This document shows positions 11,273 to 13,340 of a stretch of 64,000 nt of DNA, in pieces; within the stretch, counting starts at the first letter, position 1; each line of letters begins with the position of its first letter. The position numbers were made by a program, and so were the translations under genes. The notes below the pieces were generated by a model, which was not told the origin of the DNA, searched no databases, and was given only the letters and a program-made list of their open reading frames with translations. This stretch comes from Escherichia coli (GTDB lineage: Bacteria; Pseudomonadota; Gammaproteobacteria; Enterobacterales; Enterobacteriaceae), in the NCBI RefSeq assembly GCF_030013595.1, contig NZ_CP122768.1; one strand, written 5' to 3'.

Positions 11273-12056
11273 GAAGATATTCCTTAAAATATTATTGATT
11301 TTCATTGCGATATTGTATGTCTGATTCAGGATATGTTGACTTATACATCGGTTTTGTCTGGGTTATTGGATATGCCAATCCCTAATTTTATTAGGGCATG
11401 ACTAAAAATGCTGAATATGATAAGGAGAGAAGTGATTATCAGTATGCTGTTCATATAGCCTCGAATTAGTAATGTGTTATATATGATATAGTTGACAATT
11501 TTTATCTTGGGTGTTCTTAAAGTTCGTAGATAAACATTGTCGTTTCAGGTATACAGGAATGCTAACAGGTGGCGGCAAAAATCAGGCGGTTTATGGCGCA
11601 ATCTGAAGTGGCAACTGCAAACTATCTTATGCAGAGACTCTACACGGATTGGGTTTAAAAGTATACATAGATAACAATTTTTATCTGAAGAAGAAAAATA
11701 TCAAGGTGATATAGCCTATATGCCTTTGATGCGGAGGAATGAATGTGATGGGAGTGATGTATCTGAATAGTTGAAAAACCGCAGACACGCCTTATGCAAG
11801 AACGTGCTGCGGTTGGCTGGTAAATTTTTCGATAGTGCGAGTATTGAATGATTTCCAGCCGTTATTGATTTTACGCGTAAATCCATGAAAAAACTACTTA
11901 TCTGTTGGGGAGTTTTTTGGGGCATATATGGGACAGAAATAGGCCCCAGATAGACACTGAGATCGAACTTAGGATGCTTTTAAAAAAATGCAACTATCTG
12001 AAAAAACCTAGAAAACGCCAAGGAAACCACAGGATGGGAAAAAACACCTGTGAATT

Positions 12057-13340
12057 ATGGATTTCCAGTTATATTCGCTCGGCGCAGCGTTAGTGTTTCA
12101 TGAAATATTTTTTCCTGAATCATCAACGGCAATGGCGTTAATTCTGGCAATGGGAACCTACGGTGCAGGTTATGTGGCGCGTATTGTCGGAGCATTTATT
12201 TTCGGCAAAATGGGCGACAGAATCGGGCGTAAAAAAGTACTCTTTATTACCATCACCATGATGGGGATCTGTACCACCTTAATTGGTGTGTTACCGACCT
12301 ATGCACAGATTGGTGTTTTTGCACCCATCTTGCTGGTGACGCTGCGTATTATTCAGGGATTGGGTGCAGGTGCGGAAATTTCCGGTGCCGGTACGATGCT
12401 GGCGGAATATGCGCCAAAAGGTAAGCGCGGAATTATCTCCTCATTTGTGGCTATGGGGACTAACTGCGGAACCTTGAGCGCAACGGCAATCTGGGCCTTT
12501 ATGTTCTTCATTCTCAGTAAAGAGGAACTGCTTGCGTGGGGATGGCGTATACCGTTCCTGGCGAGCGTTGTCGTGATGGTCTTTGCTATCTGGTTGCGTA
12601 TGAATCTGAAAGAAAGCCCGGTCTTTGAGAAGGTTAACGACAGCAACCAACCGACAGCAAAACCTGCACCTGCTGGTAGCATGTTCCAGAGCAAATCCTT
12701 CTGGCTGGCAACAGGGCTGCGTTTTGGTCAGGCTGGTAACTCCGGTTTAATTCAGACTTTCCTTGCAGGCTATTTAGTGCAGACGTTATTGTTTAACAAA
12801 GCAATTCCAACAGATGCATTGATGATCAGTTCGATTCTCGGCTTTATGACCATTCCGTTCCTTGGTTGGTTATCCGATAAAATTGGTCGCCGGATCCCGT
12901 ATATTATTATGAATACCTCTGCGATTGTGCTGGCGTGGCCAATGCTTTCTATCATCGTAGATAAAAGCTATGCCCCGAGCACCATTATGGTTGCACTGAT
13001 TGTGATTCATAACTGTGCGGTGCTGGGATTATTTGCTCTGGAAAACATTACCATGGCAGAAATGTTCGGCTGTAAAAACCGCTTTACCCGGATGGCTATT
13101 TCTAAAGAAATTGGTGGTCTTATCGCTTCCGGTTTTGGTCCTATCCTAGCGGGTATTTTCTGCACCATGACGGAATCCTGGTATCCGATCGCCATTATGA
13201 TCATGGCATATTCAGTGATTGGTTTAATCTCTGCGCTGAAAATGCCAGAAGTGAAAGACCGTGATTTAAGTGCACTGGAAGATGCCGCGGAAGATCAACC
13301 GCGTGTTGTAACAGCTGCGCAACCTTCAAGAAGTCTGTAA
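12057..13340 (+). CDS. ydfJ: MFS (metabolite:H+ symporter family) transporter YdfJ, 5'-truncated at the prophage junction
   Basis: 427 aa; the motif normally inside TM1 of MHS transporters (WFDF..YG...FFP) begins at residue 2 and G-DR-GRK is at about residue 50, so roughly 25-30 N-terminal codons are missing; an in-frame stop lies immediately upstream of the ATG. Confidence 0.75.
   Translation: MDFQLYSLGAALVFHEIFFPESSTAMALILAMGTYGAGYVARIVGAFIFGKMGDRIGRKKVLFITITMMGICTTLIGVLPTYAQIGVFAPILLVTLRIIQGLGAGAEISGAGTMLAEYAPKGKRGIISSFVAMGTNCGTLSATAIWAFMFFILSKEELLAWGWRIPFLASVVVMVFAIWLRMNLKESPVFEKVNDSNQPTAKPAPAGSMFQSKSFWLATGLRFGQAGNSGLIQTFLAGYLVQTLLFNKAIPTDALMISSILGFMTIPFLGWLSDKIGRRIPYIIMNTSAIVLAWPMLSIIVDKSYAPSTIMVALIVIHNCAVLGLFALENITMAEMFGCKNRFTRMAISKEIGGLIASGFGPILAGIFCTMTESWYPIAIMIMAYSVIGLISALKMPEVKDRDLSALEDAAEDQPRVVTAAQPSRSL

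Follow-up and report, generated by a model that had tools for sequence, protein, structure and literature searches.

Right end of a Qin-type lambdoid prophage inside the Escherichia coli transporter gene ydfJ

The stretch of Escherichia coli DNA analysed here (64,000 nucleotides of contig NZ_CP122768.1, assembly GCF_030013595.1; hereafter the window) contains, almost beyond doubt, the right-hand end of a lambda-like, Qin-type prophage integrated into the transporter gene ydfJ. The boundary lies at 12051-12068. To its left is phage DNA, comprising a tail fibre gene, tfaQ, pinQ, ydfK, ynfT, a hairpin and an attP arm, and to its right is the chromosome, comprising ydfJ codons 29-455, ydfI and the genes that follow. 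An earlier note, made from the letters alone, had placed a prophage-chromosome junction inside ydfJ, and this is borne out by the core repeat of attL and attR, by empty sites and by the attP of free phages. The ydfJ prophage junction is already known as a published integration hotspot, and the Qin insertion, the loss of 28 codons and the loss of the promoter have been described (PMC6379469). Added here are exact coordinates, corrections to the ATG and att position, an account of how the arm is built, the attP of free phages and occupancy counts. For annotation, the prophage boundary in the window is fixed at 12051-12068, ydfJ is a 5'-truncated remnant with a native start codon, and 11306-12054 is phage DNA with recognisable parts and no chromosomal leader.

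A megablast search of 5,426 complete E. coli genomes with sequence from the window returned a full-length match to strain HCP5S3_I2 (NZ_CM149870.1), with 1 mismatch in 2,701 bases, at 13148. Window position 12057 corresponds to position 2619782 of this record, from which the left prophage end, outside the window, was read. In the record a Qin-type lambdoid prophage of about 52 kb lies between rspB and ydfJ, and the window holds its right junction. The annotated order is tail fibre, tfaQ, pinQ (-), ydfK (-), ynfT (-), ydfJ, ydfI, ydfZ, rspR and ydfG, with ydfJ marked as 'incomplete, missing N-terminus'. The G+C content of the interval 11306-12060 is 37.6%, that of the window 48.8% and that of ydfJ 46.7%.

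Comparison of attB, attL, attR and attP gives an exact core of 11 bp, TTATGGATTTC, at 12055-12065, identical in all four sites and occurring once in the window against 0.02 occurrences expected by chance. Search for a direct repeat at the other prophage end, as had been suggested, found a second copy adjoining the integrase gene about 52 kb leftward (L005 15356-15366, the attL of the matching record, outside the window). An extended imperfect direct repeat of 18 or 19 bp is likewise present at both ends; in attR it is the 18-bp sequence TGAATTATGGATTTCCAG at 12051-12068, and in attB and attL it measures 19 bp. The attB of the intact locus reads GCGCT TGAATTTATGGATTTCCAG TTATATT, its 19 bp spanning ydfJ codons 26-32; attL in the matching record reads GCGCT TGAATTTATGGATTTCaAG AGTCATA, and attR in the window reads CACCTG TGAATT-ATGGATTTCCAG TTATATT. 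Fusing the left side of attL with the right side of attR restores attB exactly, with nothing missing in the matching strain, and the converse fusion, of the left side of attR with the right side of attL, gives the free-phage attP. The latter is contiguous in phages HannyBb and mEp460_ev081, where the arm runs ...CACCTGTGAATTATGGATTTCAAGAGTCAT... into int-xis-exo. Flanking markers, TTT versus TT and C versus A, segregate between attL and attR as in reciprocal exchange within the core. With the core identical in all four att sites, strand exchange must have fallen within TTATGGATTTC. An att sequence of 18 or 19 bp has been defined for ydfJ prophages, with the site filled in many strains including K-12, and an attP amplicon has been reported for the related PPydfJ in strain 11368 (PMC8112680). 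An att remnant had been predicted within the 750-bp AT-rich stretch upstream of ydfJ; it is absent from the body of that stretch and sits at its extreme right edge, straddling the interval end.

On this evidence a lambda-like temperate phage of the Qin, mEp460 or HannyBb type integrated, almost certainly, by tyrosine-integrase site-specific recombination. Its attP (...CACCTGTGAATT-ATGGATTTCaAGAGTCAT...) recombined with the 19-bp attB, TGAATTTATGGATTTCCAG, strands being exchanged inside the shared core. The outcome is attR at 12051-12068, with the first 31 ydfJ codons left beside rspB at attL, about 52 kb off and next to int and xis. Precise excision would rebuild an intact ydfJ.

Occupancy of the site was assessed with a 301-bp probe across the intact junction, which matched in 5,373 genomes. 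The junction is uninterrupted in 2,009 of the 5,426 complete genomes, and among the 3,364 further genomes that match, most (about 3,360) have the probe split between two places overlapping by the same 19 bp. The site is thus about 37% empty and about 62% occupied among the complete genomes, figures that bring up to date a previous estimate of 48% from 638 strains. The same integrase adjoins rspB in 2,712 genomes, and the same pinQ-ydfK-ynfT end adjoins ydfJ in 1,984. In strain LFB1-1-1R the empty site has the order rspA-rspB-ydfJ (455 aa)-ydfI, and identity to the window starts just before the ATG. Other prophage types at the ydfJ site (F8111-type and O157/Stx-type) share only the att-proximal arm.

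The truncated ydfJ occupies 12057-13340 on the plus strand, from an ATG at 12057 to a stop at 13340, and encodes 427 aa of an MHS-family MFS transporter without half of TM1. These are residues 29-455 of the intact YdfJ, with 426 of the 427 residues identical. Intact YdfJ has 455 aa, so exactly 28 codons are absent from the window ORF. The earlier note had put the loss at 25-30 codons, a range into which the number falls; the codons were displaced rather than removed, lying about 52 kb away at attL without any deletion. There they form part of a 42-aa YnfP-like ORF (L005 15274-15402, outside the window) that joins YdfJ residues 1-31 to 11 phage-encoded residues and is the counterpart of K-12 ynfP, which is listed among short ORFs (PMC6001520). 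The start codon had been thought fortuitous; the ATG at 12057 is instead the native Met29 codon, within the crossover core. An in-frame stop does lie upstream, though not directly, the codons reading ...CAC CTG TGA ATT ATG GAT with one ATT between stop and ATG. This TGA, at 12051-12053 on the plus strand, arises because the phage half of att has TT where the host has TTT, lacking one T.

The product begins, as had been proposed, inside the conserved TM1 motif. In TIGR00883 (metabolite/H+ symporter, 400 positions) the window product, starting MDFQLY, enters at position 7, and intact YdfJ matches from position 1, at residue 23. The scores are 453.5 bits for the truncated and 462.9 bits for the intact form, both above the curated cut-off of 443.45. 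Against the ShiA and ProP models the window product starts at positions 37 (of 438) and 40 (of 500), respectively. A complete MHS N-terminus carries the TM1 segment G-x-x-x-E-F/W-x-D-F, of which the window product lacks GWLGTALEF. Alignment to intact orthologues, the check advised by the earlier note, gave lengths of 454-460 aa in Citrobacter, Enterobacter, Leclercia, Lelliottia and Superficieibacter, none with the same short N-terminus, and residues 12-28 (DLVKAAVSGWLGTALEF), which precede MDFQLY, are nearly invariant among them. An AlphaFold2 model of intact YdfJ, built on a 12-sequence alignment, has a mean pLDDT of 40.8, too poor to delimit TM1; in this low-confidence model the first predicted helix covers residues 10-46. 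A PDB sequence search at E <= 1e-5 returned no solved relatives of YdfJ.

With regard to expression, a promoter scan gave no plus-strand promoter-like site between 11291 and 12300, and no Shine-Dalgarno sequence is recognisable upstream of 12057. For the intact locus, the scan returned nothing promoter-like from rspA to ydfJ, and a strong terminator lies directly after ydfJ; an rspA-rspB-ydfJ unit with ydfJ as its final gene is therefore probable. As no promoter-like site was seen upstream of intact ydfJ, its native promoter would be that of rspA, and the remaining ORF would be cut off from the upstream rspA-rspB transcription unit. The insertion had been held to remove the native promoter, which is right in that all upstream sequence has been cut off, the promoter in question being probably that of rspA. 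The rspA/ydfJ cluster may be a sugar-acid utilisation unit; a search of the literature available for a link of ydfJ and rspA to L-gulonate catabolism gave nothing usable. Because the conserved first half of TM1 is missing, the ydfJ remnant is most likely non-functional, and loss of its expression is likewise probable. Some ydfJ transcript in K-12 is indicated by a study of DicC overexpression, which lists ydfJ as differentially expressed (PMC11430063).

According to one alternative the insertion is no simple knockout, in that the Met29 product would be made and be partly functional, or the prophage would serve as a reversible switch restoring ydfJ (active lysogeny). The truncated ORF is open in all six occupied loci examined, with 10-21 synonymous and 0-3 non-synonymous differences and no sign of decay; int and xis are intact, attL and attR would rebuild a perfect ydfJ, and with about 62% of genomes occupied, occupancy is evidently tolerated. 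Set against this are the lack of a promoter-like site or Shine-Dalgarno sequence upstream of 12057 and the loss of half of the conserved TM1, and the low dN/dS may reflect a history as an intact gene together with recombination. This alternative is improbable. Equally doubtful is its bolder form, in which the insertion is a switch rebuilding a functional rspAB-ydfJ or the Met29 product is under selection, and the hairpin described below is perhaps a sib-like retroregulator common to Qin-, Rac- and phiP27-type phages. If true, a switch or a selected Met29 product would fit the lack of decay of the truncated ORF across lineages.

Two further readings have next to no probability beside integration into ydfJ. 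Should the 427-aa form be native, the 455-aa form would be a secondary N-terminal extension or a mis-annotation; the 427-aa form does make up the largest protein cluster (3,723 member sequences versus 2,586 for the 455-aa form), and NC_000913.3 lists it as an ordinary CDS. This was rejected on orthologue lengths, with residues 12-28 almost perfectly kept across the five genera, on the MHS, ShiA and ProP models, all of which begin well upstream of the truncated start, and on the missing codons, which are intact at attL. A truncation by deletion or IS-mediated rearrangement beside the prophage, with no site-specific integration, could appeal to the IS3, ISEsa1 and IS66 elements of the prophage and to strain TOE17, in which an IS5 has removed most of the arm, but was likewise rejected, since attL and attR reconstitute attB exactly, about 3,360 genomes share the 19-bp breakpoint and a matching attP is present in free phages.

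The phage DNA at the junction is more varied than the long ydfK leader plus junction that had been supposed, as it also holds ynfT, a hairpin and an integrase-specific attP arm, all of it phage DNA up to 12054. The genes pinQ, ydfK and ynfT lie on the minus strand. The serine DNA invertase gene pinQ is at 10132-10722, as given by the RefSeq annotation of the matching record; inverted repeats sought near the tail-fibre and pin genes as Pin crossover sites were no more than weak pairs. The gene ydfK, 77 aa as annotated in the matching record, is at 11039-11272, and its product matched no Pfam or NCBIfam family. A second in-frame start, ATG 11305, would give ydfK 88 aa, and the start of the interval analysed earlier was set by that end. 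Next is ynfT at 11341-11454, encoding a 37-aa small protein of the YnaM/YnfT family (PF23676, E=6.5e-28; NF041477, E=1.2e-17); a peptide identical to it has been listed (PMC6001520). A minus-strand promoter-like site lies at 11339-11312, between ynfT and ydfK.

A conserved 34-nt hairpin follows at 11779-11812 (minus strand; -20.7 kcal/mol, z = -4.4), with UUUUUC after it on the minus strand, and is on these features terminator-like on that strand. Its position coincides exactly with the mosaic boundary at which the pin-ydfK-ynfT module gives way to the att arm. The hairpin is also present in Rac, in an F8111-type prophage and in phiP27; across the four sequences a single base pair differs, in both of its partners, which lends modest support. 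Copies in the compared loci lie at L007 3732-3765, L002 4001-4034 and L014 304-336, and the F8111 copy has no U-tract. In the circular phage it lies on the other side of attP from int, about 290 nt beyond the int stop codon. In lambda this is the position of tI/sib, which is absent from the annotation of the lambda record, and by analogy the hairpin may have a tI/sib-like role. A simple terminator scan of lambda missed tI. The sole Rfam match in the region, at 11674-11811 (+), is a sub-threshold one to the Shigella sRNA family CssrB (RF02799), with 29.8 bits against a gathering threshold of 76 and only the 3' hairpin aligning well; the resemblance is chiefly to the hairpin just described. CssrB may derive from a homologous prophage end.

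The region from about 11817 to 12054 is an attP arm specific to ydfJ-integrating phages and equivalent to the lambda P arm. Homology to the Rac end does not extend past about 11816-11830, and sequence shared with other ydfJ prophages begins at 11779 or 11915; in free phages the arm is contiguous with the int-side arm. Within it an 18-bp block, TGGGGCATATATGGGACA, at 11918-11935 (+), is invariant in all six aligned and otherwise diverging arms, including that of phiP27, whose core differs, and is a candidate arm-type integrase site. Copies of the TGGGGCA type occur in the window at 11904, 11917 and 11928, and on the int-side arm at L005 15426 and 15437, 11 bp apart. The 8-mer TTGGGGCA, with at most 1 mismatch, has 35 matches in the window against 68 expected, so that it shows no enrichment there. 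The TGGGGCA-type sites are candidates, put forward on their local clustering and cross-phage conservation.

The prophage extends leftward for about 52 kb in the matching record, through lambda-like tail, head, lysis, Q, relBE, dicB and exo genes, and ends with xis and int at attL, 38 bp from the core and adjoining rspB. The integrase is a 426-aa tyrosine type with Arm-DNA-bind_2 (PF12167) and Phage_integrase (PF00589) domains, and both int and xis are intact. Insertion elements in the prophage are an IS3, an incomplete ISEsa1 and a member of the IS66 family that interrupts the S49 head-protease gene (L004, record 2571506-2599869). The prophage is probably defective for particle production, despite the intact int and xis. 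The side tail fibre gene at 6103-9459 is full-length, encoding 1,118 aa, with a long repetitive central part rich in Ala and Ser; in K-12 a short remnant of the gene is left, stfQ.

Elsewhere in the window, the matching record's annotation shows an IS91-family element interrupting the diguanylate cyclase gene dgcZ at about 20029-22632. In a beta-glucoside-type cluster at about 26372-27965, a PTS IIC gene contains an internal stop and a IIA gene is truncated, and a frameshifted MFS transporter gene lies near it, at about 23073-23910. At about 60183-64000, two adjacent site-specific integrase fragments just after hipBA are followed by a 2.4-kb hypothetical gene, a region that may be the edge of another integrated element.

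Among known systems, the right end of Rac in K-12 (ynaE-ynaM-ttcC) carries a paralogous module, pin-ydfK/ynaE-ynfT/ynaM, together with the same hairpin, identity being about 99% as far as about 11816-11830. Past the hairpin Rac differs: the arm there is its own, with GGGGCAAAA repeats, and the core, which lies in ttcA, is a different sequence. Lambda is alike in having a tyrosine integrase with an N-terminal arm-binding domain and in the transcription of int towards attP. The candidate arm sites here also resemble those of lambda in spacing: on the far arm they are some 120-137 bp away from the core, and on the near arm they overlap the 3' end of int; the Int sites annotated in lambda are found at about -141 to -90, again with an overlap at the end of int. 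Lambda differs in its core, in its attB, which is the gal-bio intergenic site rather than a coding gene as here, and in its arm motif, which is unrelated to the TGGGGCA-type motif seen here. The free phages mEp460_ev081 (LR597641.1), HannyBb (PP925841.1), Tritos and PhiR42_1 have a contiguous tfa-pin-ydfK-arm-core-int-xis-exo. Window positions 11500-12065 are found mid-genome in these four at 98-99% identity, and the int side exceeds 99%; they differ in being unintegrated, with phage DNA on both flanks of the core. Qin of K-12 (NC_000913.3 1632277..1652745) has the same attB, the same 11-bp core and the same pinQ-ydfK-ynfT right end, with 98.4% identity over 2.7 kb. It has the same 427-aa truncated ydfJ (b1543) and the matching N-terminal fragment ORF, ynfP (b4534), at attL, and as annotated in NC_000913.3 the prophage extends over the first 9 nt of ydfJ. 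In K-12, Qin has been reduced to 20.5 kb, its intQ being a pseudogene and its stfQ truncated, whereas the prophage here is about 52 kb long, IS-interrupted, with intact int and xis and a full head and tail gene set.
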